A DNA stretch of 37,165 nucleotides, from UHGV virus genome UHGV-0093680; one strand, 5' to 3'. Position 1 is the first letter of the stretch; each line of letters opens with the position of its first letter. This document shows positions 4,804 through 36,638 of the stretch, piece by piece. A program made the position numbers and the translations under genes. This DNA is from a virus. The notes under the pieces are model-generated. The model searched no databases. It saw only the letters and a list, made by a program, of their open reading frames with translations, and was not told the DNA's origin.

Positions 4804-4992
4804 TCAGAATGGTAATTCGGATGGGGAGGAAAGAAACTCACGCTCATTCATGCGCTCTCTTTGTGCCTGCCATAAGCAAAGTTGTTTCTTTGATTTATCT
4901 CCCGCTTTACGCCAGTAACGAGCCTCAGCAATGTGATATTCTCTTTTTAATCGACTTAACTCTGGAGTTTTCGCCAGTTCTACCGGAATCAT
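4804..4992 (-). CDS. Hypothetical small protein (62 aa)
   Basis: ORF 4804..5004; start at MIPVELAK with GGAGG 5 nt upstream; ATGA overlap with the kil-like stop. Confidence 0.45.
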   Translation of the reverse strand: MIPVELAKTPELSRLKREYHIAEARYWRKAGDKSKKQLCLWQAQRERMNEREFLSSPSELPF

Positions 4993-5102: not shown

Positions 5103-5235
5103 TCTTTGGGACTCCTGGCTGATTAAGTATGTCGATAAGGCGTTTCCATCCGTCACGTAATTTACGGGTGATTCGTTCAAGTAAAGATTCGGAAGGGCAG
5201 CCAGCAACAGGCCACCCTGCAATGGCATATTGCAT
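5095..5235 (-). CDS. cIII: CIII (FtsH inhibitor, CII stabiliser)
   Basis: In-frame ATG within ORF 5095..5337 gives MQYAIAGWPVAGCPSESLLERITRKLRDGWKRLIDILNQPGVPKNG, essentially the lambda CIII sequence as I recall it (C-terminus shorter); AAGGAG 7 nt upstream. Confidence 0.85.
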   Translation of the reverse strand: MQYAIAGWPVAGCPSESLLERITRKLRDGWKRLIDILNQPGVPKNG

Positions 5236-5296
5236 GGTGTGCTCCTTATTTATACATAACGAAAAACGCCTCGAGTGAAGCGTTATTGGTATGCAT

Positions 5297-5322
5297 ATAA
5301 AAAGGCCCTCACACTGGAGGGC
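5297..5322 (-). terminator. Rho-independent terminator (tL1-like) between the 80-aa gene and cIII
   Basis: Minus-strand hairpin GCCCUC-loop-GAGGGC followed by UUUUUAU; position matches an N-antiterminated leftward terminator. Confidence 0.55.
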
Positions 5323-5753: not shown

Positions 5754-6137
5754 TCATCTCGCCGTCAGTTGTTTTGATTTCCGGTATCCTGCTGCGTAAA
5801 GAGCTACATCTGGAAGACATACACCAGTTTCTGGTTGCTTATGTCCAAACTCATTCGCGTACACAATGGCCGCTCTCTCCAGATTGCGTCTGTATTCTTT
5901 CTGTTGCCAGATCACGTCCTGTGCCATGAACTTAATTGGCTTAGCGTCTTCTATGCGCTCAGGCGTTTCGTGAGTACCTTTAGCCTGAATCTGCGCTCTG
6001 CTTAGAGTAGGGCGGTGTAATACTTCTGAACTTATTGCTTCTTCGCGGGCCAGCACGCCGTTAGCTAATGCCTTTGCCTTTAAACGCTCACGACGACGAG
6101 AACGTGAATTGCCTTTGAACTGAGTTCTGCGTGTCAT
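5754..6137 (-). CDS. N: N-type transcription antiterminator (P22 gp24-like arginine-rich motif)
   Basis: In-frame ATG within ORF 5754..6203 (MTRRTQFKGNSRSRRRERLKAKALANG), an arginine-rich N-terminus; AGGAGG 6 nt upstream; a boxB hairpin lies in its leader. Confidence 0.75.
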   Translation of the reverse strand: MTRRTQFKGNSRSRRRERLKAKALANGVLAREEAISSEVLHRPTLSRAQIQAKGTHETPERIEDAKPIKFMAQDVIWQQKEYRRNLERAAIVYANEFGHKQPETGVCLPDVALYAAGYRKSKQLTAR

Positions 6138-6266
6138 ATGGAACCTCCTGATGAACTTTGGCGGTGAATACAGCCGGGCGACTAACTCCGGTCGCGTAAT
6201 CATTGCAAAGCGCCTCCGCCGAGAAGGTTAGCTTCTGCATTCACCCCAAAGTTCACTTTGGTTATT

Positions 6267-6281
6267 GCGCTTTGTCAGCGC
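6267..6281 (-). promoter_or_regulatory. nutL boxB hairpin
   Basis: Minus-strand GCGCUGACAAAGCGC (5-bp stem, GACAA loop); the same 13-nt core recurs in nutR at 8776-8790 and matches the P22 boxB as I recall it. Confidence 0.75.
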
Positions 6282-6350
6282 CGTAGATTCATATTCGAAT
6301 CGTTGTATATTCACCGCCCTGGTGAGTAGTGCGTCCTGCTGATGACGATA

Positions 6351-6379
6351 ATAATGAACCAATAGTTCGACATTATCAA
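6351..6379 (-). promoter_or_regulatory. Candidate pL (leftward early promoter)
   Basis: Minus-strand TTGATA - 17 nt - CATTAT, about 65 nt upstream of boxB; operator half-sites not resolved. Confidence 0.3.
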
Positions 6380-6564
6380 GAACTATTGGTACGAATTTTG
6401 GTGATTTATTAACTCTACGAAGTATGATTCTGATATATAAGGAAATTTATTTTTGAAAATGTGGCTGATGAAGGTTATGCGGCAGGGATCAGAACTGCAT
6501 GGTTTAGCGAGTTACATCAATAAATACAATTGGTTATGTGTTTTTAGGTGGGGGAGCGAGAGGC

Positions 6565-6592
6565 AAATAAAACCCGGCACTGAGGCCGGGTG
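6565..6592 (-). terminator. Rho-independent terminator (tImm-like) after the cI-cassette operon
   Basis: Minus-strand hairpin CCCGGC-loop-GCCGGG followed by UUUUAUUU, starting a few nt after the 227-aa gene stop. Confidence 0.75.
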
Positions 6593-6596
6593 TGTA

Positions 6597-7280
6597 TTAG
6601 GGGGTTGAGACTCCAGAGAGCAATCCGTAGATTTTATATACAGCAAATGCTAATGCTGGCAAGCCAAGGGCCCATTTGATTATATCAAGCTTAACATCAC
6701 TAAGCTTACCTTCTAACTTTGCCTCTTGAACAGAAAGAGCTGCATCGATCTTTTTTGATTGGGAGTCAAGGGCACTCTCAATTCTACTCGATTGTATGTC
6801 CAGACGACTGTTGATTTGTTCGTGCTGAGTAACAACTAAATGCTTCATCTCCTTTATATCTGAAGCCATTAGTTCACGCCATTTGGCCATATCAGCCTGC
6901 ATTTTTGAGGCCACTGCATCCACTTCAGCTTTATTTGCCTTCAGAAGTGCCTGTATTTCGTTTCTGCTCAAATCGGACATTGCGGTTCCCTGTATAGGAG
7001 TTTCCTCGTACGGTGGGATAACATTAGATTGTCCTTTACAATCGGCAACCCCTCCTTTATCTACGATTGTAGCAGTTAGCTGGGAATTGGTCGCATCATC
7101 CACCATGTTTTTTGGTGAATAAGAGGAAATAGGCGTAGAAAACAGATTACCTTTTGCTGTTTCCATGAACATCATGAAATCGCGAGTATTAACGTTATTC
7201 AGGGAAACTTGCAGTGGTTTAACAATACTTGATGTTTTGTAAGTAATAGTTAAATCACCTACTTCTTCCGGTTGTTGCAT
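6597..7280 (-). CDS. Unknown tail-anchored coiled-coil membrane protein (227 aa), distal gene of the cI-proximal cassette
   Basis: Long ORF; central heptad-like region (…AEVDAVASKMQADMAKWRELMASDIKEMK…) and a C-terminal hydrophobic helix (WALGLPALAFAVYKIYGLL); start overlaps the upstream stop (TAATG). Confidence 0.7.
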   Translation of the reverse strand: MQQPEEVGDLTITYKTSSIVKPLQVSLNNVNTRDFMMFMETAKGNLFSTPISSYSPKNMVDDATNSQLTATIVDKGGVADCKGQSNVIPPYEETPIQGTAMSDLSRNEIQALLKANKAEVDAVASKMQADMAKWRELMASDIKEMKHLVVTQHEQINSRLDIQSSRIESALDSQSKKIDAALSVQEAKLEGKLSDVKLDIIKWALGLPALAFAVYKIYGLLSGVSTP

Positions 7281-7612
7281 TACGACTTCGCTCCATTAGA
7301 GTTTTGTGCCTCTAATTGTTCGAAAAGAAGAACTATATTCTCCTGAAGAGCCTTTAGTTGTGCCATTGGCATTATCACAGTGCATTGCTGATTGAGTTCA
7401 TTTACAGAGCCTATCTGCATATTCGCTCTACCTGGTTGATCTGGTATATCATTTTGGGATAGTACCGCAGGTATTGACTTGTTTGCGATAAAATGTATAC
7501 AAATGAGATTTTTTTCCGCTCCCGGTAGTGGAGCAAAACTAGCGAAGTCCGCATAGGTTTCAATATAATCCACAGATGGTTTAATTTTGACCGGTTCCAT
7601 AACGCCTCTCAT
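7280..7612 (-). CDS. Unknown protein (about 107-111 aa), proximal gene of the cI-proximal cassette
   Basis: ORF 7280..7615; first ATG at 7612, with an alternative ATG at 7600 preceded by GAGAGG; no motif recognised. Confidence 0.6.
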   Translation of the reverse strand: MRGVMEPVKIKPSVDYIETYADFASFAPLPGAEKNLICIHFIANKSIPAVLSQNDIPDQPGRANMQIGSVNELNQQCTVIMPMAQLKALQENIVLLFEQLEAQNSNGAKS

Positions 7613-7617
7613 CAAAT

Positions 7618-7646
7618 ATTGTAGGTTTTTTAATTCAATGTGTTAA
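7618..7646 (-). promoter_or_regulatory. Candidate sigma70 promoter for the two-gene cassette
   Basis: Minus-strand TTAACA - 17 nt - TACAAT in the AT-rich gap between the cI stop and the cassette. Confidence 0.35.
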
Positions 7647-7723
7647 ATGTTGGTGGTGTGTTATTTAAAGTTATTTTGACATCCTCCACGCCCTGAAGGA
7701 CGGGGCTTGTCGCGTACTTGAAG

Positions 7724-8431
7724 TCACAAACTTTTCAGCCACTCCCTTGCCTCGATGTCATCCAGATGGCGAGATTGCTTCAGAATACCAGCCACATACT
7801 CCACCTTTGCTACTTGATGATAAGGCAACGTTATTGGCCTATGGTCCTGGTTGATGCTTGTAAACTGGTATTCTCCGTCTCTGTCATAGCCAAGAACCTT
7901 AATCATGTTGTGTCCTTCAACGGTTCTGACAAACACCTCATCACCCGGGAATACTTTGGTGTTAGGCTCAATGAGTACATATTCTCCTGATTTTATTCTG
8001 GGCCACATGCTGTCTCCTTTCACACGAAGGCCAAAGGCATCTGGATCATCGCTATAAATTTTGAGCCACCCATCGCGCTCTTCGGTCATCTCGATGGCAC
8101 CATCAACACCAAGAATTGCCTCACCAACCACGCGCACTAACCCTTTTTTTAATTTGCCAACAAATGAAAGAGTATCTTCATCATTCGCTCCATTTAACGA
8201 AGTGCCGTGCTGAAGCCAAACAACATCAACGTTTAGAAATTTCGCAAGCGCATTCATTTTTTCCTGACGCGGTAAAGACTCAGCATTAAACCATTTGCTA
8301 ACGCCTTTGGACGAAAGAGAAAGGGCACGGGCTATAGCCATTCCCCTACCATGTTCATCAAGACCAGCTTCTTTACAGGCTTGCGCTAGCCGCTGGGCGA
8401 ATTCTTTGCGCACTTTTTCATTCTGAACCAT
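7724..8431 (-). CDS. cI: CI-type repressor (HTH plus S24 LexA-like peptidase domain)
   Basis: N-terminal HTH region, C-terminal GDSMWP…K autocleavage motif; divergent from cro across an operator region. Confidence 0.85.
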   Translation of the reverse strand: MVQNEKVRKEFAQRLAQACKEAGLDEHGRGMAIARALSLSSKGVSKWFNAESLPRQEKMNALAKFLNVDVVWLQHGTSLNGANDEDTLSFVGKLKKGLVRVVGEAILGVDGAIEMTEERDGWLKIYSDDPDAFGLRVKGDSMWPRIKSGEYVLIEPNTKVFPGDEVFVRTVEGHNMIKVLGYDRDGEYQFTSINQDHRPITLPYHQVAKVEYVAGILKQSRHLDDIEAREWLKSL

Positions 8432-8509
8432 GAGTACGATACTAAAGCACTTGCAAAAACTTTCAGTTCAATCATAATGCGTACTGAAAGTACGAAAAAG
8501 GATATCCCT
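8432..8509. promoter_or_regulatory. OR region with divergent pR and pRM
   Basis: Plus-strand TTGCAA - 16 nt - CATAAT upstream of cro; minus-strand TAGTAT about 7 nt before the cI ATG, implying a leaderless cI mRNA as in lambda; repeated GTAC/ACTTTCAGT-type motifs are likely operator half-sites. Confidence 0.5.
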
Positions 8510-8737
8510 ATGCAAAATCTTGATGAGCCGATTAAAGGTGTCGGCATCCCTGAAGTTGCGAAGGCTTGTGGAGTTAGCGAAAGAGCTGTCTATAAGTGGC
8601 TCAAAAACGGCTTCCTCCCTAAGACTGAGTTTTTTGGGAAAACGAAATACGCATCAAAAATCGAAGAGATTTCTGGTGGCAAATATCAAGCAAGCGAAAT
8701 GCTTGAAATAAGCAAAAAGAACCTTCTGGCTGCATAA
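8510..8737 (+). CDS. cro: Cro-like repressor
   Basis: In-frame ATG within ORF 8477..8737 (MQNLDEPIKGVGIPEVAKACGVSERAVYKWLKNG, an HTH); AAGGA 7 nt upstream; about 75 aa. Confidence 0.75.
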   Translation: MQNLDEPIKGVGIPEVAKACGVSERAVYKWLKNGFLPKTEFFGKTKYASKIEEISGGKYQASEMLEISKKNLLAA

Positions 8738-8775
8738 GTAACACCGCTATTTTCACAATGGACATTCGTCCTACG

Positions 8776-8790
8776 TCGCTGACAAAGCGA
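8776..8790 (+). promoter_or_regulatory. nutR boxB hairpin
   Basis: TCGCTGACAAAGCGA between cro and cII; same loop and stem core as nutL; a possible boxA (CGCTATTTT) lies about 22 nt upstream. Confidence 0.7.
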
Positions 8791-8875
8791 GTCCCAATAT
8801 ATCTGACCAACTAAGGCCATATGCGTTTCCACGCATACCTTTCAACTAACTATTCACTATTGGAAATCTTAAAAA

Positions 8876-9172
8876 ATGGAACAAACAAGTTACAGCAAAC
8901 TATCACAGCGCGACGTTGATCGCGCAGAAACAGATTTACTCATCAACCTGTCAACGCTTACCCAGCGCGGTCTGGCAAAGATGATTGGCTGTCATGAATC
9001 GAAGATAAGCAGAACGGACTGGAGATTTATTGCTTCGGTCTTGTGTGCTTTCGGAATGGCATCAGACATCAGTCCGATTAGCAGGGCTTTTAAGTATGCG
9101 CTTGATGAAATCACAAAGAAAAAATCCCCGGCTGCCACCGAGGATTTTAAGCAAATTGATATGCAATTCTGA
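8876..9172 (+). CDS. cII: CII-like transcriptional activator
   Basis: C-terminus [18 protein letters not shown] resembles lambda CII (…KKRPAATERSEQIQMEF) and a central HTH; position after cro and nutR. Confidence 0.8.
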
Positions 9173-9204: not shown

Positions 9205-9351
9205 ATGACAAAACAACTCAGTCCTTACCAGGACAAAATTCACAAACACATACTACGTGATCGCTTCCTGTCCAGCTTCAAGCAGCCTGGTCGATTCCGG
9301 GCTGAGTTGGAAAAAGTGAAGCTGATGCAGAAGGAGAAAGGTCATGAGTAA
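9205..9351 (+). CDS. Small ORF (48 aa) between cII and the O-like gene
   Basis: Not in the ORF track (under 60 aa); ATG 4 nt after AGGAG; overlaps the O start by 8 nt; a 48-codon ORF occupies this position in P22 as I recall. Confidence 0.4.
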
Positions 9352-10204
9352 TCTTGCAACCGTAACACATTTAAGGCCCTCACAACGGCCTGTGGAGCGT
9401 CGTGTGGCAGAAGTTGAAGATGGTTATACCCGTCTTGCAAATGCCCTGTATGAAGAGCTTATCGGCGCAGATTTAACAAAAAATCAGAGCAAGGTTGCCC
9501 ACGCCATATGCCGTAAAACATACGGATACGGTAAAAAGATGGATCGCATCTCTGATAGTCAGTTAGCTCAAATTACCAGGCTGCCAAGACAGAAGGTAAA
9601 CAAGGCCAAGAATGAGCTTATCGCGATGAAGGTAATCCTTCGCGAAGGCCAGCAAATCGGGCCTAACAAGAACATCGAGGAATGGCAAATCGAAGGGTGT
9701 CACTACTCTGGTGATAATGTCACTGCATTGGTGACAAAAAGTGTCACCAAAACGGTGACAGCGCTGTCACCAAAACAGGGACACACAAAAGAAACTATTA
9801 CAAAAGAAAAAAGAAATAATAAAAACACTATGTCCGAAAGTGTTCGGACGGAGTGTGAAAAATCATCTGACCGTCACGAAGAAACCGACAAGGCATTCGA
9901 GGAAATATTCTGGTGTGCAGGCATGCGGAAAGCCGGGAAAAAAAACGCAGCTTCGGCATTCAGAACACAGTTCAGGGAATGGCGTAAAACTACCAGGGGT
10001 ACGGCAAGCGAGTTTGCCACGATGCTGGCAGAAGACATCGCATGCAGGAATGGTAAGCAGTTCGGATTCGACAGGTTGTTACCATCGAGCTACTTGAACG
10101 GTCAGCGCTGGAACGACGAAAAGCCAGAAACCATTCAACCACAATCCAAACCATCATCCGCAATCACCGTATCGAAAACTGGCTACGTGTTTTTCGACAG
10201 GTGA
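9344..10204 (+). CDS. Replication initiator, lambda O-like
   Basis: N-terminal region ([56 protein letters not shown]…GPNKNIEEW) aligns by eye with lambda O; iterons lie inside the gene. Confidence 0.85.
9700..9830 (+). repeat. Replication origin: iterons plus AT-rich tract inside the O-like gene
   Basis: Repeated GGTGACA / TGTCACCAAAAC units around 9705-9785, followed by an A/T-rich stretch; same arrangement as the lambda ori. Confidence 0.7.
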
Positions 10205-10311
10205 ACCATGAAATCAAAAATCAAATCGCTACTGGTCGCTGGTTATAACCACGGCTGGTTAAGTATTTCGTTTGTCGATTTCTGGTTTAAAAATCTCAAT
10301 CTGAGGGAATC

Positions 10312-12192
10312 ATGAGGCCAAGTGAACTTAGCGACCTGCTTTGGGCGCAGGTTGACAGGGTGGCTCCGCACCTGTTGCCAAATGGCAAGAAAGAGGGGCA
10401 TGAGTGGGTTGCCGGTAACGTCAACGGTGACAAGGGAAACAGCCTTAAGGTCAACCTTAGCGGCAAGAAAAAATGGGCTGATTTCGCTGAGGGAGACGGC
10501 GGTGACATGCTTGATTTGTGGATGGCATGTCGTGGAATTAACCTGCATCAGGCTATGCAGGAAGCGAAAGCATTTCTCGGTATCAAGGATGACGATCACC
10601 ATTTCGATGCCAGACGTGAGAAGAAATTCTCCAGACCTGATCGCAAGAAAATCGCCCGCTACGTTACCAGAACAGAATCCCATCTTGAGTACCTGCAATC
10701 GCGTGGCATATCGCCAGAAATCGTAAAGCGCTACGAGGTTGTCAGCGGCAAGGTGTGGAATGGAGAGCGGGAACTGGATGCTCTGGTGATTCCGTACAAA
10801 CGCGATGGTGAGTTGTTGCAGGTCAAGCGAATCAGCACTGAGCGCCCGGACGGGAAGAAAGTCATTATGGCAGAAGGTGATTGCGAACCTTGCCTGTTCG
10901 GATGGCAGGCTCTGGACGCTGGCGTGAGGGCGGTTGTGCTTTGCGAAGGCGAAATTGATTGTATGAGCTATGCGCAATACGGCATCTCGGCGTTATCCGT
11001 GCCGTTTGGTGGCGGGAAAGGCGCTAAGCAACAGTGGATTGAGTTTGAGTATCACAACCTCGACAGGTTTGAGGAAATATTCATCTCGATGGACGTTGAT
11101 GATGTTGGTCGTGAAGCCGCAAGGGAAATCGCAAGCCGACTCGGTGAACATCGTTGCCGTCTTGTTACTCTGCCGTACAAAGACATCAACGAATGCCTGA
11201 TGAACGGTGTTACCGAGGATGAAATCTGGCAGTACATCGGCACGGCATCCTACTTCGATCCTGAAGAACTCTACAGCGCGCGAGAGTTTTACCAGGACAC
11301 TATCAACGCTTTCTACGGCAAGCAGCAGTATCTGTTTAATCCACCGTGGGAATCTCTGGCAGATAAATTCCAGTTCCGTGAGGCAGAGTTGACGCTGGTC
11401 AATGGGGTGAACGGTCACGGAAAAACGGAGGTTGTCGGGCATATGGCACTTGAGGCAATGCGTCAGGGTGTGAAGACGTGCATCGCGTCACTTGAGCTGA
11501 AGCCTGGTATTCTCCTTAAGCGCCTTACCCGTCAGGCGACGTGCTGCAAGATGCCGCCAGTGCTGGAAATTGACTCTGCATTTAAATTTTATGACGAAAG
11601 ACTTTGGGTGTTTGGCCTGACCGGAACGGCGAAAGCCGACAGGCTGATCGAAATATTCGACTACGCTCGCCGCCGATACGGGATCCAGTTATTCATCATC
11701 GACAGCCTGATGAAATGTGGCATAGGCGACGATGACTATAACGGGCAGAAGGCGTTTGTTGACTCGATTTGCGACTTCAAAAACAAAACAAACTCCCACG
11801 TCATTCTCGTTACTCACTCGCGAAAAGGAGACAGCGAAGAAAAACCAACCGGGAAAATGGACGTAAAAGGCTCTGGAGCGATAACAGACCTGACAGACAA
11901 CCTTTTTATCATCTGGCGTAACAAGGCTCGCGAGAGAGCGTTACAGAGAGTTCAAAGCGGTGAACAGATGTCAGAGAAGGACGAACAGCTACTGGTGTCT
12001 CCGGCATCTGTTTTGATGCTTGAAAAACAACGTAACGGCGAAGGTTGGGAAGGTGGTGTCCCGTTGTTCCTTGACGAGCAATCGCACCAGTTCCTGCAAC
12101 TTGAATCAGGATCGCCATATAGCTACATCGCCAATATGCCGAAATCGGAATATGACGAGGCGTGGCGACAGGAAAACGTGACGGAGTATTAA
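10312..12192 (+). CDS. Primase-helicase fusion (TOPRIM primase plus RecA-fold helicase)
   Basis: TOPRIM-like VVLCEGEIDCMSYAQYG, Walker A GVNGHGKT and Walker B-like IIDSLMK; 626 aa, directly downstream of the O-like gene. Confidence 0.8.
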   Translation: MRPSELSDLLWAQVDRVAPHLLPNGKKEGHEWVAGNVNGDKGNSLKVNLSGKKKWADFAEGDGGDMLDLWMACRGINLHQAMQEAKAFLGIKDDDHHFDARREKKFSRPDRKKIARYVTRTESHLEYLQSRGISPEIVKRYEVVSGKVWNGERELDALVIPYKRDGELLQVKRISTERPDGKKVIMAEGDCEPCLFGWQALDAGVRAVVLCEGEIDCMSYAQYGISALSVPFGGGKGAKQQWIEFEYHNLDRFEEIFISMDVDDVGREAAREIASRLGEHRCRLVTLPYKDINECLMNGVTEDEIWQYIGTASYFDPEELYSAREFYQDTINAFYGKQQYLFNPPWESLADKFQFREAELTLVNGVNGHGKTEVVGHMALEAMRQGVKTCIASLELKPGILLKRLTRQATCCKMPPVLEIDSAFKFYDERLWVFGLTGTAKADRLIEIFDYARRRYGIQLFIIDSLMKCGIGDDDYNGQKAFVDSICDFKNKTNSHVILVTHSRKGDSEEKPTGKMDVKGSGAITDLTDNLFIIWRNKARERALQRVQSGEQMSEKDEQLLVSPASVLMLEKQRNGEGWEGGVPLFLDEQSHQFLQLESGSPYSYIANMPKSEYDEAWRQENVTEY

Positions 12193-12274
12193 ATGGCCAT
12201 CTACATCACTGAGCTGATAGCAGGGTTATCGTTACTAATGGTTCTTACTGTATATATTATTAAGTATATTCTTT

Positions 12275-12886
12275 ATGCGAATAAAAAAACTAATTGATCA
12301 CGATGAGCTTCTGTCAACATTATCATATGACTCAGAAACAGGAATATTTAAATGGCTAAAAACAAATTCAGTAGTAAGAGTAAAAGGTAGTATTGCTGGA
12401 GGTGTTAGTGGTGGTTATATATGCATTAGCATAAATAATGTTTTGTATTATGCGCATAGACTTGCTTGGTTCTATGTATACAAAAAATGGCCTCCTAAGT
12501 TTATTGATCATGTAAATGGGAACAGACTTGACAATAGGATTTCAAATCTAAGACTGGCAACAGAGGAGCAGAATGCAAGAAACATTGTAGGGAATAGGTT
12601 AAACACATCCGGTGCGATTGGAGTGTCTTGGGATAAGACAACTGGCAGGTGGAAGTCTTATGTTGGTTATAAAAATAAGACAATATCGTTAGGGTATTTC
12701 GATAGCAAAGAAGATGCAGCATTCATAGCAGCACTAGCAAGAAAGAAACTATATGGAACTTATGCGAGTAAAGCACTTAATTGCGAGCATGAGCTTTTAT
12801 CTCAATTTAATAATGATGAGGATAAACTTGCGGAATATCTTAAGGAAAAATCTAAAAGGACTCGAAAGCGTGTTAAAAAAAGATAA
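12275..12886 (+). CDS. HNH endonuclease with AP2-type DNA-binding domain
   Basis: HNH motif IDHVNGNRLDNRISNLRLATEEQNARN followed by an AP2-like segment; sits in a visibly AT-rich island with no clear SD. Confidence 0.75.
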   Translation: MRIKKLIDHDELLSTLSYDSETGIFKWLKTNSVVRVKGSIAGGVSGGYICISINNVLYYAHRLAWFYVYKKWPPKFIDHVNGNRLDNRISNLRLATEEQNARNIVGNRLNTSGAIGVSWDKTTGRWKSYVGYKNKTISLGYFDSKEDAAFIAALARKKLYGTYASKALNCEHELLSQFNNDEDKLAEYLKEKSKRTRKRVKKR

Positions 12887-12920
12887 AGGCCTGCTGGTAA
12901 TCGTAGGCCTTTTGTTTGTA
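12884..12920 (+). terminator. Terminator-like palindromic hairpin after the HNH gene
   Basis: AAAGGCCT…AGGCCTTT stem followed by TTTGTTTGT; the long loop lowers confidence. Confidence 0.45.
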
Positions 12921-14641: not shown

Positions 14642-15290
14642 TGGCAGCAAATACCGAAATATTTGGGTAGTTGGCGATCTGCACGGATGCTACACGAACC
14701 TGATGAAAAAACTGGAGACGATAGGATTCGACACCAAAAAAGACCTGCTTATCTCGGTTGGCGATTTGGTCGATCGCGGTACAGAGAACGTCGAATGCCT
14801 GGAATTAATCACATTCCCCTGGTTCAGAGCTGTACGTGGAAACCATGAGCAAATGATGATTGATGGCTTATCAGAGCGCGGAAACGTCAATCACTGGATG
14901 CTTAATGGCGGTGGCTGGTTCTTTAATCTCGATTACGACAAAGAAATTCTGGCTAAAGCTCTTGCCCATAAAGCAGATGAACTTCCGTTAATCATCGAAC
15001 TGGTGAGCAAAGATAAAAAATATGTCATCTGCCACGCCGATTATCCTTGTGACGAATACGAGTTTGGAAAGCCAGTTGATCATCAGCAGGTAATCTGGAA
15101 CCGAGAACGAATCAGCAACTCACAAGACGGGATCGTGAAAGAAATTAAAGGCGCGGACACGTTCATCTTTGGTCATACGCCAGCAGTGAAACCGCTCAAA
15201 TTTGCCAACCAGATGTATATCGATACCGGCGCAGTGTTCTGCGGAAAGCTCACATTGATTCAGGTACAGGGAGAAGGCGCGTGGGCATAA
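14619..15290 (+). CDS. ninI: Ser/Thr protein phosphatase (lambda NinI / PPase-like)
   Basis: In-frame ATG within ORF 14544..15290; metallophosphatase motifs GDLHG, GDLVDRG, GNHE; starts [25 protein letters not shown] as in the lambda phosphatase. Confidence 0.85.
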
Positions 15291-15769
15291 GAGAACTAAA
15301 CCTCACCAAAGAACAGCACGATTGGCTGAATGGCTGGCTTGAACTGTGGGGCGCATGGGTTTATTCAGGCCGCCTGGAAAAGCGCATGAGCAGCGTAATA
15401 GCGAAGTTCATGGAGAGCGTAGAGCCGGGAAGAGTTATGACAAGGCCAATGTGTAATGATGATGATGGAATGTTGATTTCTCAGGTCGTCGATTCCGTCA
15501 TGTGCATTGACAAGAAAGCCTTTGGCATCCTCCTCAGCTACTACGCTCATGGATCTTCCAAGCATGCCATTGCATCTTACTATCATCGTGCCGCAAGACC
15601 TCGCAAGATGTTATGCCGGGGCGGCGGGCGTATTCAAAAACCATCGCTCGCAACCTGTCGCCGGGAAGTTGACGAAATCCTCAATGCCTCGTTGTTTATG
15701 ATTTACCCGGTTCTGGATAGTGCGTTTAAAAACCGGAAACGTGTAGAGAAAATTAAACATGTAGCATAG
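15281..15769 (+). CDS. Q: Q-type late antiterminator (QuuD / phage-82-like family)
   Basis: Segment LELWGAWV…[21 protein letters not shown] resembles the DLP12 QuuD-type Q as I recall it; sits after the nin block and before the late promoter; GTG start after GGAGAAGG. Confidence 0.6.
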
Positions 15770-15860: not shown

Positions 15861-15935
15861 GGGGCAGTCGTATAAAGGTCATTACGGAAGGCTGTTAACC
15901 TTCTTATCGTGGTTCGAGTCCACGCTGTCCCGCCA
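15861..15935 (+). tRNA. tRNA-like gene, anticodon GUU (Asn) by manual folding
   Basis: Acceptor stem GGGGCAG/CTGTCCC (one G-U pair), anticodon stem GAAGG/CCTTC with loop CTGTTAA, T-arm CGTGG-TTCGAGT-CCACG, discriminator G, encoded CCA; D-stem only 3 bp. Confidence 0.5.
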
Positions 15936-15940
15936 AATAT

Positions 15941-16016
15941 GCTGGTTTAGCTCCAATGGTAGAGCAGTCGCCTTGTAAGCGAATGGGTGGCGGTTCAAGT
16001 CCGTCAACCAGCACCA
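15941..16016 (+). tRNA. tRNA-like gene, anticodon UGU (Thr) by manual folding
   Basis: Acceptor stem GCTGGTT/AACCAGC, D-arm GCTC-CAATGGTA-GAGC, anticodon loop CTTGTAA, T-arm GGCGG-TTCAAGT-CCGTC, encoded CCA; one mismatch in the anticodon stem. Confidence 0.55.
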
Positions 16017-19680: not shown

Positions 19681-20121
19681 ATGGCGCGCCCAACGAAGTA
19701 TCAAGAGGCGTATGCCGAACAGGCACGCAAACTGTGCTTGCTGGGCTGTACAGACGCCGAACTCGCGGACTTCTTTGAAGTTAGCGAGGCAACAATCAAC
19801 AATTGGAAATTGGAATATCCGGAGTTTTTAGAGTCCATAAAAAAGGGTAAGGCAGTCGCTGATGCAGAAGTTAGTGATCGTCTTTATCAACGCGCTATGG
19901 GCTTCGTGGCTCCAGACATCGATATTCGTGTTATTGAAAACAGAATTGTCGAAACTCCTCTTGAGAAGTATTACCCGCCTGATACAACAGCTGCCATCTT
20001 CTGGCTTAAGAACCGACAGAAGGATAAATGGCGCGACAAGGTTGATCACGAGCTAACAGGCAAAGACGGCGGCGCAATCCAGATTGAAACATCACCGATG
20101 AGCACTCTATTCGGAAAATGA
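19681..20121 (+). CDS. Terminase small subunit (Sf6 gp1-like C-terminus)
   Basis: C-terminal tail …ELTGKDGGAIQIETSPMSTLFGK matches the Sf6 small-terminase C-terminus as recalled; N-terminal HTH-like domain; ATGA overlap with terL. Confidence 0.75.
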   Translation: MARPTKYQEAYAEQARKLCLLGCTDAELADFFEVSEATINNWKLEYPEFLESIKKGKAVADAEVSDRLYQRAMGFVAPDIDIRVIENRIVETPLEKYYPPDTTAAIFWLKNRQKDKWRDKVDHELTGKDGGAIQIETSPMSTLFGK

Positions 20122-21533
20122 CCTCGATTAATCCTATCTTTGAACCGTTCATTGAGGCGCATCGCTACAAAGTCGCCAAAGGTGGTCGAGGTAGCGGTAA
20201 GTCATGGGCAATTGCGAGGCTGCTTGTTGAAGCGGCGCGTCGTCAGCCAGTGCGTATTCTCTGCGCTCGTGAACTGCAAAACAGTATCAGCGATTCGGTA
20301 ATCCGGCTGCTTGAAGACACCATAGAGCGTGAAGGGTATACGGCTGAGTTTGAAATTCAGCGTTCCATGATTCGTCATCTCGGAACAAATGCTGAATTCA
20401 TGTTCTATGGCATCAAAAACAACCCGACGAAGATTAAATCGCTCGAAGGCATTGATATCTGCTGGGTGGAAGAAGCGGAAGCGGTAACAAAGGAATCGTG
20501 GGATATCCTGATCCCAACCATCCGTAAGCCGTTCTCTGAAATATGGGTGAGCTTTAACCCGAAGAACATCCTCGACGATACCTATCAGCGATTCGTTGTA
20601 AATCCTCCCGATGATATTTGTCTGCTGACGGTGAACTACACCGACAATCCGCATTTTCCTGAAGTTCTCCGTCTGGAGATGGAAGAGTGTAAACGCAGAA
20701 ATCCGACACTGTATCGTCACATCTGGCTTGGTGAGCCAGTGAGCGCAAGTGATATGGCAATCATCAAACGTGAATGGCTTGAAGCCGCAACCGATGCGCA
20801 CAAGAAACTCGGATGGAAAGCGAAAGGCGCTGTTGTCTCTGCGCATGACCCATCAGATACAGGGCCAGATGCTAAAGGTTATGCATCGCGTCACGGTTCG
20901 GTAGTTAAGCGCATTGCCGAAGGTCTGCTGATGGACATCAACGAGGGTGCTGACTGGGCTACTTCGCTGGCGATTGAAGACGGCGCTGACCATTACCTGT
21001 GGGATGGTGATGGTGTTGGTGCCGGGCTACGCAGACAGACAACGGAAGCGTTCTCCGGCAAGAAAATCACCGCCACGATGTTCAAGGGCAGCGAATCGCC
21101 ATTCGATGAAGATGCACCGTATCAAGCCGGAGCATGGGCTGATGAAGTCGTACAGGGTGACAACGTTCGCACTATTGGCGATGTGTTCCGCAATAAGCGA
21201 GCGCAATTCTATTACGCGCTGGCTGACAGGCTGTATCTGACATATCGGGCGGTTGTTCACGGTGAGTATGCAGACCCCGACGACATGCTGAGTTTCGACA
21301 AAGAAGCGATAGGCGAGAAGATGCTGGAGAAGCTATTTGCAGAACTGACGCAGATTCAGCGCAAATTCAATAACAACGGGAAGCTGGAGCTTATGACTAA
21401 GGTCGAAATGAAGCAGAAGCTCGGTATTCCATCTCCTAACCTGGCTGATGCGCTGATGATGTGTATGCATTGCCCGGAGTCGGCTGCGCAACCCGACTAT
21501 TCCAGTTACTCAATTCCTTGTGGTGTAGGTTGA
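20118..21533 (+). CDS. Terminase large subunit (Sf6/P22 type)
   Basis: Walker A KGGRGSGKS near the N-terminus and Walker B ICWVEE; 471 aa; N-terminus MTSINPIFEPFIEAHRYKVAKGGRGSGKSWAIARLL resembles Sf6 gp2 as recalled. Confidence 0.9.
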   Translation: MTSINPIFEPFIEAHRYKVAKGGRGSGKSWAIARLLVEAARRQPVRILCARELQNSISDSVIRLLEDTIEREGYTAEFEIQRSMIRHLGTNAEFMFYGIKNNPTKIKSLEGIDICWVEEAEAVTKESWDILIPTIRKPFSEIWVSFNPKNILDDTYQRFVVNPPDDICLLTVNYTDNPHFPEVLRLEMEECKRRNPTLYRHIWLGEPVSASDMAIIKREWLEAATDAHKKLGWKAKGAVVSAHDPSDTGPDAKGYASRHGSVVKRIAEGLLMDINEGADWATSLAIEDGADHYLWDGDGVGAGLRRQTTEAFSGKKITATMFKGSESPFDEDAPYQAGAWADEVVQGDNVRTIGDVFRNKRAQFYYALADRLYLTYRAVVHGEYADPDDMLSFDKEAIGEKMLEKLFAELTQIQRKFNNNGKLELMTKVEMKQKLGIPSPNLADALMMCMHCPESAAQPDYSSYSIPCGVG

Positions 21534-21534
21534 T

Positions 21535-23733
21535 ATGGCTGAAAAAAAGATGACTGACTGGCATCGCAGGGTGCTGTGCAACTTTGATAATGCCTGGTCA
21601 GCAACGCAGGATATGCGTGAGCAGATTATTGAGGCTCAACGTTTCGTCCGGGTATCCGGCGCACAGTGGGAAGGCAGCACAAACGCTGGTTACTCATTTG
21701 ATGAAGGCAGGTTTGAGCATTACCCGCGCTTTGAACTGAATAAGATTTCCCGTGAATGTGATCGCATCATTGGCGAGTATCGACAGAATCGCATCAGCGT
21801 TAAATTCAGGCCGAAGGACGATAAGGCATCGGAAGCGTTAGCCGAAAAGATGAACGGAAAATTCCGCGCTGACTATCAGGAAACATCCGGTGGCGAAGCG
21901 TGTGATAACGCATTTGATGATGCTGTAACGGGCGGATTCGGTTGTTTCCGCATGTGTGCCGATTACGAAGATGAAATGGATCCGAGTAACGAGCAACGCC
22001 GTATAAGCCTTCTCCCGGTTTACGACCCAGCGACATGCGTCTTCTTCGATCAGGACAGCAAGCAATATGACCGCTCTGATGCTATGTGGGCTATGGAAAT
22101 GTTCTCCATGACGCCTAAAGCGTTCGAGGCTGAATACCCTGATTCCATCGCGGCAAGTCTTTCTCGTGATGACACTGGCACTCAATATGACTGGTCAACT
22201 CCTGATGCTATCTATGTTGGTCGCTACTACGAAGTTCGCATAGAGAAGGTGAAGCTCACAGCATGGCGTAACCCTGTTAGCGGAGAAACGGCAATCTATG
22301 ATGAAGAGCAAATCAAAGATATTGTCGACGAGCTGACCGATGGTGCATTCGAACTGATTGGTGAGCGGACAGTGAAGAAACGCCGAGTTTATTGCGGTCT
22401 TCTGTCTGGCGCTGAATGGCTGGAAGAACCGAAGCGTATTCCGGGCGAACATATTCCTCTCATCCCGGTATATGGGCGTCGTTCATTTGTTGATAATCAG
22501 GAGCGAATCGAAGGCCACGCAGCAAAAGCGATGGATGCACAGCGTCTTGAGAACCTGATGGTTTCCATGATTGCAGATAACGCTACTCAGGCTGGCGGTG
22601 ATGGCATTCCTGTAGTTGATGTTGACATGATTCCTGGTCCTCTTGCCACTCATTGGGCGGAGCGCAACAAAAAGCGCCCGGCGTTCCTGCCGATGGTCAG
22701 TCTGAAAAACAAAAACGGAGATATTACTGCGCAGGCTCAGGTCAGCAGTTATACACCTCCGACACAAATGCCTCCAGCTCTTGCCGGGCTATTGCAGTAC
22801 ACCGGAACGGCTATTCAGCAAATTACAGGTGCGTCGCAGTTTGAGAACATGCCGAGCAACGTCGCCACCGATACCGTTGATAGCATCTTTAACCGGATGG
22901 ACACGCAGTCCTATATCTACATGGACAACATGGCTAAATCCATGCGCCGCGCTGGCGTTGTGTGGCTTTCTATGGCGCGTGAGGTCTATGGCAGTGATAC
23001 GCCGATGCGTATCGTTAATGAGGACGGCAGCGATGACGTGGCGCTGATGACTGGTGAAGTGGTTGACCGTCAGACAGGGCAGGTTATCGCGCTTAATGAC
23101 CTTTCGCAGGGCAACTATGAAGTGACTGTCGATGTCGGTCAGTCGTTCGCTACTCGCCGTGATGCAACGGTTAAGTCGTTACTTTCCATGCTGGCACTTA
23201 TCCCACCAGGAACGCAGAAGCACGACCTTGTATCGTCGATGATTCTCGACAATATGGACGGCGAAGGGATGGACGACCTTAAAGAATACAACCGCAATCA
23301 GTTGCTTCTGTCTGGCGTTATCAAGCCGAGAACGCCTGAAGAACAGCAGATGGTTGAACAGGCGAAACAACAACAGGCCAGTCAGCCAGATCCGGCTATG
23401 GTTGCAGCGCAAGGTCAACTTCTTGCTGGTCAGGCTGAATTGCAGAAAGCGCAGAACGAACAGGCAGCTATTCAGGTTAAAGCATTCCAGGCACAGACGG
23501 ATGCTCAGGTTGCTGCGGCAAATGTTGTGAAAATCCTCGCATCTGCCGATAGCCAGCAGAAATCTGATATCCGCGAGGCTCTGAAACTGCTCGGACAGTT
23601 CCAGCAACAGCAAGGAGATAACGCCCGTGCTGATGCAGAGCTTGTCCTGAAAAGTCAGGCACAGGGCCATGCACAACGAATGGACATCAGCAGCATCCTG
23701 CAAAAATCAACCCAGCAACAACCACAGCAGTAA
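21535..23733 (+). CDS. Portal protein (P22 gp1-like)
   Basis: 732 aa; blocks …KRRVYCGLLSGAEWLEE…GEHIPLIPVYG… and the Gln-rich C-terminal barrel region align by eye with the P22 portal. Confidence 0.9.
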   Translation: MAEKKMTDWHRRVLCNFDNAWSATQDMREQIIEAQRFVRVSGAQWEGSTNAGYSFDEGRFEHYPRFELNKISRECDRIIGEYRQNRISVKFRPKDDKASEALAEKMNGKFRADYQETSGGEACDNAFDDAVTGGFGCFRMCADYEDEMDPSNEQRRISLLPVYDPATCVFFDQDSKQYDRSDAMWAMEMFSMTPKAFEAEYPDSIAASLSRDDTGTQYDWSTPDAIYVGRYYEVRIEKVKLTAWRNPVSGETAIYDEEQIKDIVDELTDGAFELIGERTVKKRRVYCGLLSGAEWLEEPKRIPGEHIPLIPVYGRRSFVDNQERIEGHAAKAMDAQRLENLMVSMIADNATQAGGDGIPVVDVDMIPGPLATHWAERNKKRPAFLPMVSLKNKNGDITAQAQVSSYTPPTQMPPALAGLLQYTGTAIQQITGASQFENMPSNVATDTVDSIFNRMDTQSYIYMDNMAKSMRRAGVVWLSMAREVYGSDTPMRIVNEDGSDDVALMTGEVVDRQTGQVIALNDLSQGNYEVTVDVGQSFATRRDATVKSLLSMLALIPPGTQKHDLVSSMILDNMDGEGMDDLKEYNRNQLLLSGVIKPRTPEEQQMVEQAKQQQASQPDPAMVAAQGQLLAGQAELQKAQNEQAAIQVKAFQAQTDAQVAAANVVKILASADSQQKSDIREALKLLGQFQQQQGDNARADAELVLKSQAQGHAQRMDISSILQKSTQQQPQQ

Positions 23734-23823
23734 TTAACCAATAACGTGCAATGGCTGTCTTTATGAGGCCTGGCACCCTATTGCCTTCCGATGGGCTGAA
23801 CATCGAGTAAACAGGGGTAACAA

Positions 23824-24720
23824 ATGGACCAGATGGCAGAAAACACACCAGAAGTTGAAATAGAAACCGATACATCAGAGCAGATTCCTGATGATGTCGA
23901 ACTGGCTGAAGAAGTCGAAACAGAAGATGGCAGTGAGTCCTCCGGCAATGATGCAGAGGAAGCTACTGAAACTGATGACGACGAATCAGAACAGGAATTC
24001 TACTTTGGTGACGAAAAGCTGGATTCGCCAACCAGCGAAGATGGCGCTGAGCATGGACTGGTAAAACACCTGCGCAAGACGATTAAAGAGAAAGACCGCG
24101 AGCTGAAAGAGCTGATGCGTCAGTCTCAGAAACCCGTCGAGCAGCAGCCGGTAATCACTCAACCACCGCGAATGCCAAAACTGGACGATGAGGACATCGG
24201 TTTTGATGAAGAAATCTACCAGCAACGCATGGCTAAGTGGGCAGAGGATAACGGCAAATACCAGGAGCAAGTACGAGAGCGGAAACGAGAGGAAGAGGCG
24301 CGTACCGCAACGCTTCAGCAGAAAGCAGCCAATTACATGCATAGAGTAAAAGCACTGAAAGTGGCTGGTTACCAGGATGCAGAGCAGGCTGTACGCGAAG
24401 ATGTTCCTGTTCACATTCAGGACATGATCCTTCTTGAGTCAGAGAAGCCGGAAATCGTTGTTCTGGCACTCGGTCGCAACGCTGAACTGCGCAAGCAACT
24501 GGCAGAAGCTACCAACCCCGTAGCAATTGGTCGTCTGCTGGAACGTATCGAATCGAAGGCCAGAATCATGCCAAAAGCAAAAACCACGGCAGCCACAACC
24601 CCGACAGTTAAGGGGAGCAACGGCGCAGTAATCAATAACCTCGACAAACTTCTCGAAAAAGCGCGCGACACCGGTGATTACACCGAATACCGGGCGGCGA
24701 AGAACAAAGCTAAAAAATAA
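23824..24720 (+). CDS. Scaffolding protein
   Basis: 298 aa, highly acidic N-terminus and charged helical C-terminus, lying between portal and coat as in P22-like phages. Confidence 0.65.
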   Translation: MDQMAENTPEVEIETDTSEQIPDDVELAEEVETEDGSESSGNDAEEATETDDDESEQEFYFGDEKLDSPTSEDGAEHGLVKHLRKTIKEKDRELKELMRQSQKPVEQQPVITQPPRMPKLDDEDIGFDEEIYQQRMAKWAEDNGKYQEQVRERKREEEARTATLQQKAANYMHRVKALKVAGYQDAEQAVREDVPVHIQDMILLESEKPEIVVLALGRNAELRKQLAEATNPVAIGRLLERIESKARIMPKAKTTAATTPTVKGSNGAVINNLDKLLEKARDTGDYTEYRAAKNKAKK

Positions 24721-24740
24721 TCCATCGGAGCTAAATACCT

Positions 24741-26000: not shown

Positions 26001-26004
26001 TCCA

Positions 26005-26030
26005 AGGGGCTTCGGCCCCTCTTTTTTTTT
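26005..26030 (+). terminator. Rho-independent terminator after the coat gene
   Basis: Hairpin AGGGGC-UUCG-GCCCCU followed by CTTTTTTTTT. Confidence 0.85.
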
Positions 26031-26040
26031 GGAGATCGAA

Positions 26041-26229
26041 ATGTCTCAAATCATGCTTTATAAGCCGGGATCGATGATCACCTGCGGCCCCCACTCGCTG
26101 GATTACATCATCGTTGATGACGAAGAAGTTAAATCTCACCTGAAAAAAGGCTGGGTAAAAACTCCTGAAGAAACCGCAACGAAGCAAAAAGTGGCTAAGG
26201 CGGAAGAAGATGGCGAAAACGAAGGGTGA
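26041..26229 (+). CDS. Hypothetical small protein (62 aa)
   Basis: In-frame ATG within ORF 25873..26229 with GGAG upstream; overlaps the next gene by 20 nt. Confidence 0.4.
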   Translation: MSQIMLYKPGSMITCGPHSLDYIIVDDEEVKSHLKKGWVKTPEETATKQKVAKAEEDGENEG

Positions 26230-26671
26230 TCTCGTTCTAAAGGCTTTACGAAAAGCCGGGCTGTATTCCAATGCCACGTTGACAGATGCTGACCCTCAGG
26301 CAATTGAAGATGCCATTAATGACCTCGAAGACATGATGGCAGCATGGCAGGCTAAAGGTATCGAGCTTGGATATCAGTTTGCTGATACAGAAAACGGCAT
26401 CATGCCGTTACCTGACGATGATTCAGGTATCCCTGCATGGGCAAATGATGGCGTCGCTTTGAAACTCGCTGTGCAAGTGTGCATGGATAACGTCATTCAG
26501 CCGTCAGACGCTCTCCTTACCGCTGCTGACAGTGCATATCAAACAATCTGTATCGCTTTAACCAAAATACCACCACTTGAGCGGCGAAATGATATGCCTC
26601 GCGGGGCGGGGTTAAAAAGCGCGTTTACGTGGAATCGGTTTTACATCGAGAAAGATGATCCGAGTACGTGA
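26210..26671 (+). CDS. Head completion / portal-closure protein (P22 gp4-position)
   Basis: 153-aa ORF immediately upstream of the gp10 homologue; assignment by gene order only. Confidence 0.5.
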   Translation: MAKTKGDLVLKALRKAGLYSNATLTDADPQAIEDAINDLEDMMAAWQAKGIELGYQFADTENGIMPLPDDDSGIPAWANDGVALKLAVQVCMDNVIQPSDALLTAADSAYQTICIALTKIPPLERRNDMPRGAGLKSAFTWNRFYIEKDDPST

Positions 26672-26680
26672 GGTGAATAA

Positions 26681-29255: not shown

Positions 29256-29257
29256 CC

Positions 29258-29947: not shown

Positions 29948-29957
29948 GGGGTAATCA

Positions 29958-36576: not shown

Positions 36577-36638
36577 AGCCCCAACTGCGGGAACAGTCAG
36601 GGCTTCGGTTGTCAGTAAATCCGTGGAGAAAAACCAAC

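Follow-up and report, generated by a model that had tools for sequence, protein, structure and literature searches.

The nut sites of the region described here are already known: they are annotated in phage 933W and have been dissected in the Stx1 phage H-19B. The general layout, pL-nutL-N in one direction and pR-cro-nutR-cII in the other, is shared with phage lambda, where boxA, together with NusB and S10, is required, the boxB loop is GAAAA or GAAGA, the arginine-rich motif of N is a different one and the spacer measures 8-9 nt. The lambda N leader also contains a long stem, and N bound at nutL represses the translation of its own mRNA. As for H-19B, its N protein and nutR-tR1 region were reportedly studied by Neely and Friedman in 1998 and 2000. 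Work on this phage from the Sen laboratory showed the binding of N to boxB and the NusA-dependent readthrough of terminators, using a nutR identical to the one found here and the same arginine-rich motif (PMC3526286). In that system nutR/tR1 is a Rho-dependent terminator, with a Rho-binding site that overlaps nut; the spacer and boxB, but not boxA, are protected by N together with NusA/NusG, and the spacer region is also protected by Rho (PMC3526286). The N mutations R3H, S11F, R15C/P and R18P led to the loss of antitermination at nutR/tR1 (PMC3526286).

The window analysed here, a 37,165-nucleotide stretch of viral DNA (UHGV-0093680), contains the 13-mer CGCTGACAAAGCG in exactly two copies, at 6268-6280 on the minus strand and at 8777-8789 on the plus strand (pattern search over the whole window). 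A sequence-only reading had regarded this core as a perfect stem-loop at both places, one in the N leader and the other between cro and cII. The positions and strands were right, and the locations are borne out by the gene coordinates: the start codon of N (6137) follows the nutL boxB at a distance of 130 nt, and the nutR boxB occupies the interval from the stop of cro (8737) to the start of cII (8876). However, the 13-nt core provides a 4-bp stem only, the full hairpin being in both cases 15 nt long, five base pairs enclosing a GACAA pentaloop (Table 1). RNA folding of both leaders, proposed in the same reading as a check, yields precisely these 5-bp/5-nt hairpins, with -7.1 kcal/mol (z = -3.2) at nutL and -5.6 kcal/mol (z = -3.8) at nutR, the latter appearing in each of the 15 suboptimal structures of lowest energy that were listed. 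The stem is closed by a fifth pair, G-C in nutL but U-A in nutR. The strand carrying boxB is the sense strand of the pL operon for nutL and of the pR operon for nutR, and both hairpins are found downstream of promoter-like pL and pR sites, with terminator-like sites farther downstream. We consider it very likely that they represent nutL and nutR in an N antitermination system of the H-19B/933W type.

Table 1. Features of the N/nut region and of the early operons in the window.
Feature	Position	Strand	Basis
Two intrinsic-terminator-like hairpins, pL operon, between N and cIII	5265..5322	-	Terminator scan
N antiterminator gene, 127 aa	5754..6137	-	Pfam PF25694 N_peptide
Arginine-rich motif codons, residues 9-26 (GNSRSRRRERLKAKALAN)	6060..6113	-	Contains H-19B 12-RSRRRER-18
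nutL boxB hairpin GCGCU-GACAA-AGCGC	6267..6281	-	Exact pattern match, fold, within 933W-annotated nutL
Whole nutL, 933W GenBank limits	6267..6333	-	Mapped by alignment; 66/67 identical to 933W
nutL spacer hairpin GAUUC-GAAUAU-GAAUC, then UACG linker	6282..6301	-	Predicted fold
pL promoter candidate TTGATA-17-CATTAT	6351..6379	-	Consensus scan
pR promoter candidate TTGCAA-16-CATAAT	8451..8478	+	Consensus scan; corresponds to 933W-annotated pR
nutR boxA-like element CGCUAUUUU, degenerate	8745..8753	+	Start of 933W nutR annotation
nutR spacer hairpin GGAC-AUUC-GUCC, then UACG linker	8760..8775	+	Fold; exact H-19B 'spacer' oligonucleotide match
nutR boxB hairpin UCGCU-GACAA-AGCGA	8776..8790	+	Exact pattern match, fold, end of 933W nutR annotation
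Post-nutR region up to cII, presumed Rho-dependent tR1 zone	8791..8875	+	H-19B oligonucleotide identity, fold
Intrinsic-terminator-like hairpin, pR operon, between replication and nin/Q genes	12885..12912	+	Terminator scan

The nut architecture is that of H-19B: boxA is degenerate, the spacer is long and forms a hairpin of its own, and a UACG linker leads to boxB. The segments 5' of boxB are AAUCUACG at nutL and GUCCUACG at nutR, so that the TC(C)TACG segment previously noticed ahead of each boxB is indeed present and comprises the 3' strand of the spacer stem together with the UACG linker. At nutR, where the spacer hairpin is kept in six phage types, the boxA-like element CGCUAUUUU is found 22 nt upstream of boxB and is covered by the H-19B oligonucleotide designated 'antisense to nutR boxA'. 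The equivalent position in relatives reads CGCUCUUUU or CCACUCUUUU, is nearly lost in S135 and is canonical in VT2-Sakai. At nutL, the relatives keep the stem of the spacer hairpin with a variable loop, and in VT2-Sakai and 75/02 the stem is swapped for a different helix, GUCGA/UCGAC. Folding also revealed a 5' hairpin in nutL (UCACC-AGGGC-GGUGA), and a search for a convincing boxA across this site found none.

Four H-19B oligonucleotides (boxA, spacer, boxB and flank) match positions 8733-8816 with no mismatches; the one named 'boxB' is exactly the nutR boxB of the window, and the one described as the region 'immediately after nutR boxB' is identical to 8791-8816. In this comparison, which comprised nutR and the arginine-rich motif, no difference in nutR could be detected, and the two-hairpin nutR architecture is shared as well. 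H-19B is an Stx1 phage, whereas the module of the window sits in a P22-like/CUS-3-like prophage. With respect to 933W (GenBank AF125520), the annotated nutR is identical in 46 of 46 positions and nutL in 66 of 67, N is 98.4% identical, and cI, cro and cII are of the same type. In contrast, the insert separating the two conserved halves of the N-leader stem, downstream of boxB, is not the same in 933W, the replication genes of that phage differ, and its stk kinase module, found between cI and N, is replaced in the window by two other reading frames.

The N protein matches the N_peptide family with 58.5 bits (cutoff 27.9) over residues 2-127 and shares 98-99% identity with the N proteins of 933W and the Stx1 phages. 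Its arginine-rich N-terminus, already perceived in the sequence-only reading, was confirmed by this Pfam match and by the presence of the H-19B motif 12-RSRRRER-18, which both proteins share. The protein contains R3, S11, R15 and R18, all of them residues whose mutation abolishes antitermination in H-19B. An alignment of eight N types showed that R14, R15 and the sequence ...YAAG.RK..TAR are invariant; the conserved C-terminal tail is LPDVALYAAGYRKSKQLTAR. The loci retrieved with N as the query were all at least 98% identical, and the diversity of N and nut considered below was drawn from phage records and from scans anchored on nutR. A search of PDB sequences with N yielded chance matches only (E >= 0.7), and the P22 N peptide entry was absent from them.

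The comparison with P22 nut sequences, also suggested in the sequence-only reading, showed that the nutL boxB, GCGCUGACAAAGCGC, is identical in all 15 positions to the P22 boxB-left RNA of PDB 1A4T, and hence the term "P22-type boxB" is correct; the GACAA pentaloop is common to P22 and the window. The arginine-rich motif also aligns with that of P22 N (gp24), GNAKTRRHERRRKLAI vs. GNSRSRRRERLKAKAL; a hydrophobic residue (I or L) occupies the equivalent position in each. The 19-residue P22 N peptide has 6 identities to the window N (counted by hand) and several conservative changes, and tblastn linked both proteins through the C-terminal tail only (C-terminal 22%). This tail is also the part of N that was matched in Lambda-named records. 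Judging from sequence, the window N would resemble P22 N in its expected mode of action, and it does not appear to be a close family member. A further difference is provided by the P22-like phage SE1Spa, in which a canonical boxA (CGCUCUUUA) is placed 10-15 nt upstream of boxB, without the conserved spacer hairpin-UACG unit; the window contains instead a structured spacer at both sites (22 nt at nutR), and its boxA is degenerate or absent. Thus, the proposal of a complete nut system of the P22 type stands as far as the nut system is concerned, the only P22-like elements being the loop of boxB and some of the arginine-rich motif, while the architecture as a whole is of the H-19B/933W type.

The hairpins are kept across related phages, which the sequence-only reading had made a prerequisite. 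Both boxBs were present in 78 of 84 loci having at least one boxB (mostly viral contigs carrying this N), and they were invariant in these 84 loci despite differing cro genes. When 13 nut sites from seven phage types were aligned, 95.4% of the cells of the boxB stem could pair, three of the five pairs showed compensatory changes, including G-U pairs, and the covariation score was reached by none of 500 shuffles; because the hairpins served as manual anchors for this alignment (with an N placeholder for 4-nt vs. 5-nt loops), it leans towards the structure. All 80 GACAA-nutR loci with an N gene had the ...RRRERLKAKALANG motif, and all 64 GAAA-nutR loci with an N gene had the short motif RRR(E/A)(R/H)RA.LQ, a perfect association over 144 loci that is inflated by shared ancestry and physical linkage. 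We tentatively propose, at somewhat less than even likelihood, that a single N lineage using the spacer-hairpin-UACG-boxB scaffold might comprise two specificity classes: one combining the GACAA pentaloop with the longer arginine-rich motif ...RRRERLKAKALANG, and the other a GAAA or GCAA tetraloop with RRR(E/A)(R/H)RA.LQ, about seven residues shorter. If so, co-resident Stx-type prophages would be insulated from one another as regards N, and the window N could perhaps cross-activate nut sites of the P22 type, since P22 boxB-left and the nutL boxB of the window are the same.

The pL and pR candidates are consensus matches, which were no denser than in shuffled sequence. The pL transcript would start near 6343 (AUCAGCAGGACGC), and most of the phages compared have the start motif AUCA(G/A)CAGGACGC in their N leaders. 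The region between nutR and cII contains a hairpin, UAUGCGU-UUCC-ACGCAUA, without a U-tract; a role for this hairpin and for the tR1 zone in this prophage is presumed. The terminator-like hairpins of both operons are candidate targets for N readthrough: the leftward pair is followed, just downstream, by the cIII thermoregulator (5190-5248), and Q is encoded at 15281-15769 (Pfam Phage_antitermQ). At gathering thresholds, Rfam placed no family over nut or boxB, its hits being limited to sar RNA, the cIII thermoregulator and two tRNAs.

A plausible sequence of events would be as follows. The RNAs made from pL and pR would fold into adjacent hairpins, the spacer hairpin and boxB, separated by the UACG linker. 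The boxB loop would be bound by the arginine-rich N-terminus of N, the spacer would recruit NusA, and N would contact the RNA polymerase through its conserved C-terminal tail, with the RNA looped out. The polymerase thus modified might withstand Rho at the tR1 zone overlapping nutR and pass downstream terminators, and such readthrough would lead to the expression of cIII and the recombination genes leftward, and of the replication genes, nin and Q rightward. In this scheme we infer the transcript starts, the terminators that N would overcome in this prophage and a weak dependence on boxA, NusB and S10.

Could the nutL hairpin serve another purpose? As in lambda, the nutL boxB might act mainly in the autoregulation of N translation, modulated by the long leader stem. 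Such a stem, also present in relatives, can be drawn between ~6235-6256 and ~6153-6175; it stops just 5' of the Shine-Dalgarno sequence, and its core is kept in six different N leaders, with three compensatory pairs. However, autoregulation at nutL would be an added function and not an alternative to antitermination, the pL operon does have terminator-like hairpins ahead of cIII, and nutL accompanied this N in all the loci sampled. We thus regard a mainly autoregulatory nutL as rather unlikely. Nor is it probable, and here our estimate is considerably lower, that the hairpins are relics of a defective or mosaic prophage in which N and nut no longer cooperate. The window is certainly mosaic, as it combines immunity genes and an N module of the 933W/H-19B type with a different replication module and with morphogenesis genes that are P22-like/CUS-3-like, but the N reading frame is intact and has a good Shine-Dalgarno sequence, neither nut site is mutated when compared with phages that function, among them 933W and the plaque-forming PhiR12 phages, and the type of arginine-rich motif matches that of boxB.

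One could also suppose that the inverted copies arose by chance, or that they work at the DNA level (as an operator or in recombination), with no connection to RNA. Nothing specific speaks for this view beyond the fact that the immunity region has a short inverted repeat on either side. A given 13-mer is expected about 0.001 times in 37 kb, the compensatory changes keep RNA pairing, G-U pairs included, and the repressor operators of the 933W record are located elsewhere and have other sequences. The covariation and the identity to a validated nut RNA effectively refute this possibility, to which we assign almost no probability.

The assignment of the two hairpins as nutL and nutR is, therefore, correct but ordinary, since the same sites are found in the 933W annotation and in the H-19B experiments. 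Biologically, their identification adds nothing new; its value lies in annotation, as the early-operon regulatory sites of a prophage that is a mosaic of P22-like genes and 933W immunity can be labelled confidently. Among 5426 complete E. coli genomes, 466 had a match to the nutL/pL segment, with a coverage of at least 80% in 182. Finally, when up to two mismatches were allowed, CGCTGACAAAGCG had five matches in the window, a number reached by none of 100 shuffles. Three of these carry two mismatches and lie at 15969, 18612 and 29640, all on the minus strand; at 18612 a full stem is impossible by inspection, and of the other two one lies antisense within a tRNA gene.

Exact matches to the 13-mer CGCTGACAAAGCG were found at two places in the 37-kb window, minus strand 6268-6280 and plus strand 8777-8789, and at no others; all further matches have two mismatches. 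When extended by one base at either end, the two copies become 15-nt hairpins, each with a GACAA loop on a 5-bp stem that is closed by G-C in the left copy and by U-A in the right one, a compensatory difference. The two matching hairpins claimed by the sequence-only reading were thus borne out by pattern matching and folding. The similar TC(C)TACG segment that it had placed before each is seen as AAUCUACG on the left and GUCCUACG on the right, and corresponds to the 3' arm of a spacer hairpin plus a linker. The surroundings are those of a lambdoid immunity region, with the hairpins positioned as had been described: the left one on the minus strand in the leader of N (the antiterminator gene), 130 nt upstream of its start codon, and the right one on the plus strand in the cro-cII interval. 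Since promoter-like sites were found at the expected pL and pR places, each hairpin lies on the sense strand of its own operon.

Features of the nut system and its surroundings in the window
Feature	Position	Strand	Remark
Candidate terminators	5322-5305 and 5284-5265	-	two U-tract hairpins, just before cIII thermoregulator
N, 127 aa	5754-6137	-	Pfam PF25694 "Transcriptional antitermination N peptide", 58.5 bits (cutoff 27.9)
Left boxB hairpin	6267-6281	-	GCGCU-GACAA-AGCGC, predicted fold -7.1 kcal/mol
nutL, mapped by alignment from 933W annotation	6267-6333	-	66/67 identical to 933W
pL promoter-like site	6379-6351	-	TTGATA-17-CATTAT
Strong terminator	6591-6572	-	cI-N interval
Reading frame, 227 aa	6597-7280	-	coiled-coil-like match, hydrophobic C-terminus
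Reading frame, 111 aa	7280-7615	-	cI-N interval
Promoter-like site	7646-7618	-	cI-N interval
cI	7724-8431	-	HTH and Peptidase_S24 domains
pR promoter-like site	8451-8478	+	TTGCAA-16-CATAAT
cro	8510-8737	+	immunity region gene
nutR, mapped by alignment from 933W annotation	8745-8790	+	46/46 identical to 933W
Right boxB hairpin	8776-8790	+	UCGCU-GACAA-AGCGA, predicted fold -5.6 kcal/mol
cII	8876-9172	+	Phage_CII match
Candidate terminator	12885-12912	+	between replication genes and ninG, a phosphatase, Q
Q antiterminator gene	15281-15769	+	pR operon

The observation was therefore confirmed and its interpretation as a nut system supported, although the feature itself is already known, being annotated in the Stx phage 933W and dissected in H-19B. 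With 933W, other Stx phages and PhiR12 phages the N-cI-cro-cII region shares 97-99% identity, and the 933W GenBank record (AF125520) lists "nutL; putative N-utilization leftward" and "nutR; putative N-utilization rightward"; the nutL/pL segment was matched in 466 of 5426 complete E. coli genomes. The H-19B nutR region is represented by four oligonucleotides in the supplement of PMC3526286, whose reverse complements align to window 8733-8816 with zero mismatches, so that the nutR of the window is the one studied experimentally. In H-19B nascent RNA, the spacer and boxB are protected by N with NusA/NusG and boxA is unprotected, while the Rho-dependent terminator tR1 has a Rho-binding site overlapping nut (PMC3526286). 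The arginine-rich motif of H-19B N is 12-RSRRRER-18, and antitermination is lost in the mutants R3H, S11F, R15C, R15P and R18P (PMC3526286). The arginine-rich N-terminus attributed to the N of the window was upheld by the Pfam match and by its start, MTRRTQFKGNSRSRRRERLKAKALANG, in which all residues hit by those mutations are present.

The sequence-only reading had called the system P22-type, and comparison with published P22 sites gave a divided answer. The P22 boxB-left RNA in the NMR complex 1A4T, GCGCUGACAAAGCGC (PMC11480772), is identical to the nutL boxB of the window. However, in SE1Spa, a P22-like phage, boxB follows a canonical boxA, CGCUCUUUA, at a distance of about 10-15 nt, while the elements of nutR in the window are, from 5' to 3', a boxA of degenerate sequence (CGCUAUUUU), a 22-nt spacer that contains the hairpin GGAC-AUUC-GUCC, the UACG linker and boxB; the corresponding hairpin in the nutL spacer is GAUUC-GAAUAU-GAAUC, and a search for a convincing boxA at nutL found none. 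In the proteins, the arginine-rich motifs can be aligned, GNSRSRRRERLKAKAL in the window with GNAKTRRHERRRKLAI in the P22-like N; identity to the 19-mer P22 N-peptide is limited to 6 of 19 residues (our own count), and tblastn joined the two N proteins through the C-terminal tail only. Consequently, "P22-type" is right for the boxB loop, but the degenerate boxA and structured spacer make the architecture that of H-19B/933W. The work of Neely and Friedman on H-19B, from 2000, reportedly describes independence from NusB, S10 and boxA. Directly 3' of the nutR boxB, GUCC (8791-8794, plus strand) is a second copy of the spacer hairpin's 3' arm, so that GGAC (within 8760-8794, plus strand) could pair with either copy (-9.2 vs -11.4 kcal/mol); some relatives carry GGGC together with GCCC. 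The title of that H-19B paper mentions 'alternative NUT RNA structures', to which this alternative pairing may be related.

Conservation of the hairpins in related phages, on which the sequence-only reading had staked its claim, was evident: both boxBs are present in 78 of the 84 loci that carry one or more (a set made up of viral contigs whose N is at least 98% identical to this one, together with reference phage records and the window), and the boxBs are invariant although the cro 3' ends are of several types. Small variants among close loci fall in the nutL spacer hairpin loop or in boxA, or keep the pairing, as in GGGC/GUCC, which retains a G-U pair. More distant N relatives share the nut layout with other sequences.

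BoxB hairpins in more distant relatives of the N lineage
Phage	nutL boxB	nutR boxB
Oslo	non-canonical	UCGCU-GACAA-GGCGA
S135	AGGCU-GAAA-AGCCU	UCGCU-GAAA-AGCGA
SI5	CGGCU-GAAA-AGCCG	UCGCU-GAAA-AGCGA
VT2-Sakai	UGGCU-GAAA-AGCCA	UCGCU-GAAA-AGCGA
75/02	UGGCU-GCAA-AGCCA	UCGCU-GAAA-AGCGA
HK620-type (HK630; ECP1 identical)	UCCCGC-CGAAAU-GCGGGA	UCCCGC-CGAAAU-GCGGGA

Across 13 sites from seven phage types, 95.4% of boxB stem cells are paired, three of the five stem pairs show changes on both sides, and the outermost position is occupied by U-A, C-G, G-C or A-U. The covariation score was 0.49 against 0.12 in shuffles (reached by 0 of 500), in an alignment anchored by hand on the hairpins and hence biased towards structure; sliding the partner by one column lowered pairing to 35-45%. 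In Salmonella phage Oslo, whose N is 88% identical to that of the window and whose nutR boxB is normal, the nutL boxB (about 4854-4872, plus strand) reads GCUC-CGUCAAC-GAGC, in which a C-C mismatch closes a GUCAA loop, giving a shape like that of P22 nutR.

The boxB loop type follows the type of the N arginine-rich motif in loci sampled by nutR alone. With a GACAA nutR (120 viral contigs, 116 newly analysed), the RRRERLKAKALANG-class motif is present in 80/80 contigs containing an N gene, and with a GAAA nutR (120 contigs), a shorter RRR(E/A)(R/H)RA.LQ motif together with a GAAA or GCAA nutL is present in 64/64; common ancestry and linkage inflate these counts. A GACAA nutL lies at most 260 nt from N in 75 of the 80 GACAA contigs; of the other five, the one inspected has a longer leader with its nutL boxB further upstream. 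The motifs differ in length by roughly 7 residues (codons 6060-6113, minus strand, in the window), and the cro 3' regions are of at least six kinds in the GACAA class and fall into 28 clusters, many of them singletons, in the GAAA class. Even so inflated, the split is what a matched N/boxB pair predicts. This N lineage, with its spacer-hairpin-UACG-boxB scaffold, thus shows a clean GACAA versus GAAA-loop split tracking an indel in the arginine-rich motif, which is the sole, mildly new point here; any functional meaning of the split is putative.

In the proposed mechanism, RNA from pL and pR would form the spacer hairpin and boxB; N would bind the boxB loop with its arginine-rich motif and contact RNA polymerase with its conserved C-terminal tail, LPDVALYAAGYRKSKQLTAR, and NusA would bind the spacer. 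So modified, the polymerase would withstand Rho in the tR1 zone, which overlaps nutR, and pass terminators further downstream. The binding and protection steps have been demonstrated on the identical H-19B nutR (PMC3526286), and we infer the transcript start sites and the choice of candidate terminators. The lambda cIII thermoregulator (Rfam RF01804, 88.5 bits) lies in the pL operon at 5190-5248 (minus strand), just past the two terminator-like hairpins.

The N leader also has a predicted long-range stem 3' of boxB (about 6235-6256 with about 6153-6175, minus strand; GAACUUUGGGGUGAAUGCAG... with ...CUGUAUUCACCGCCAAAGUUC), ending just 5' of the Shine-Dalgarno sequence. Six different N leaders share its core, CUUUGG...CCAAAG, and flanks, three of the pairs being compensatory, and the insert between the halves varies between window/PhiR12, 933W and other contigs. 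The processed stem of the lambda N leader is similar, and by analogy the element may act in processing or in the control of translation.

The window as a whole has a mosaic make-up, with 933W/H-19B-type immunity joined to a different cI-N interval, another replication module and P22-like/CUS-3-like late genes. In the cI-N interval (6572-7646, minus strand), two reading frames take the place of the 933W stk kinase module; PhiR12 phages have there a single 341-aa gene annotated as 'T2SS GspM containing protein'. The interval may be a cassette of cargo genes that the lysogen expresses. Unlike the 933W O/P type, the replication segment (9344-12912, plus strand) encodes an O-like protein (Phage_rep_O), a 626-aa Toprim and DnaB-like primase-helicase and an HNH-AP2 endonuclease, followed by a terminator-like hairpin. 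The sar antisense RNA (36571-36638, minus strand; Rfam RF00262, 95.6 bits), a mark of the P22-type immI region, and the P22-like late genes (19681-35020), 92-96% identical to phiv205-1 and CUS-3, indicate that 933W-type immunity is combined with P22-like morphogenesis. Two tRNA genes (15861-16013, plus strand) lie directly 3' of Q, as in Stx-type phages.
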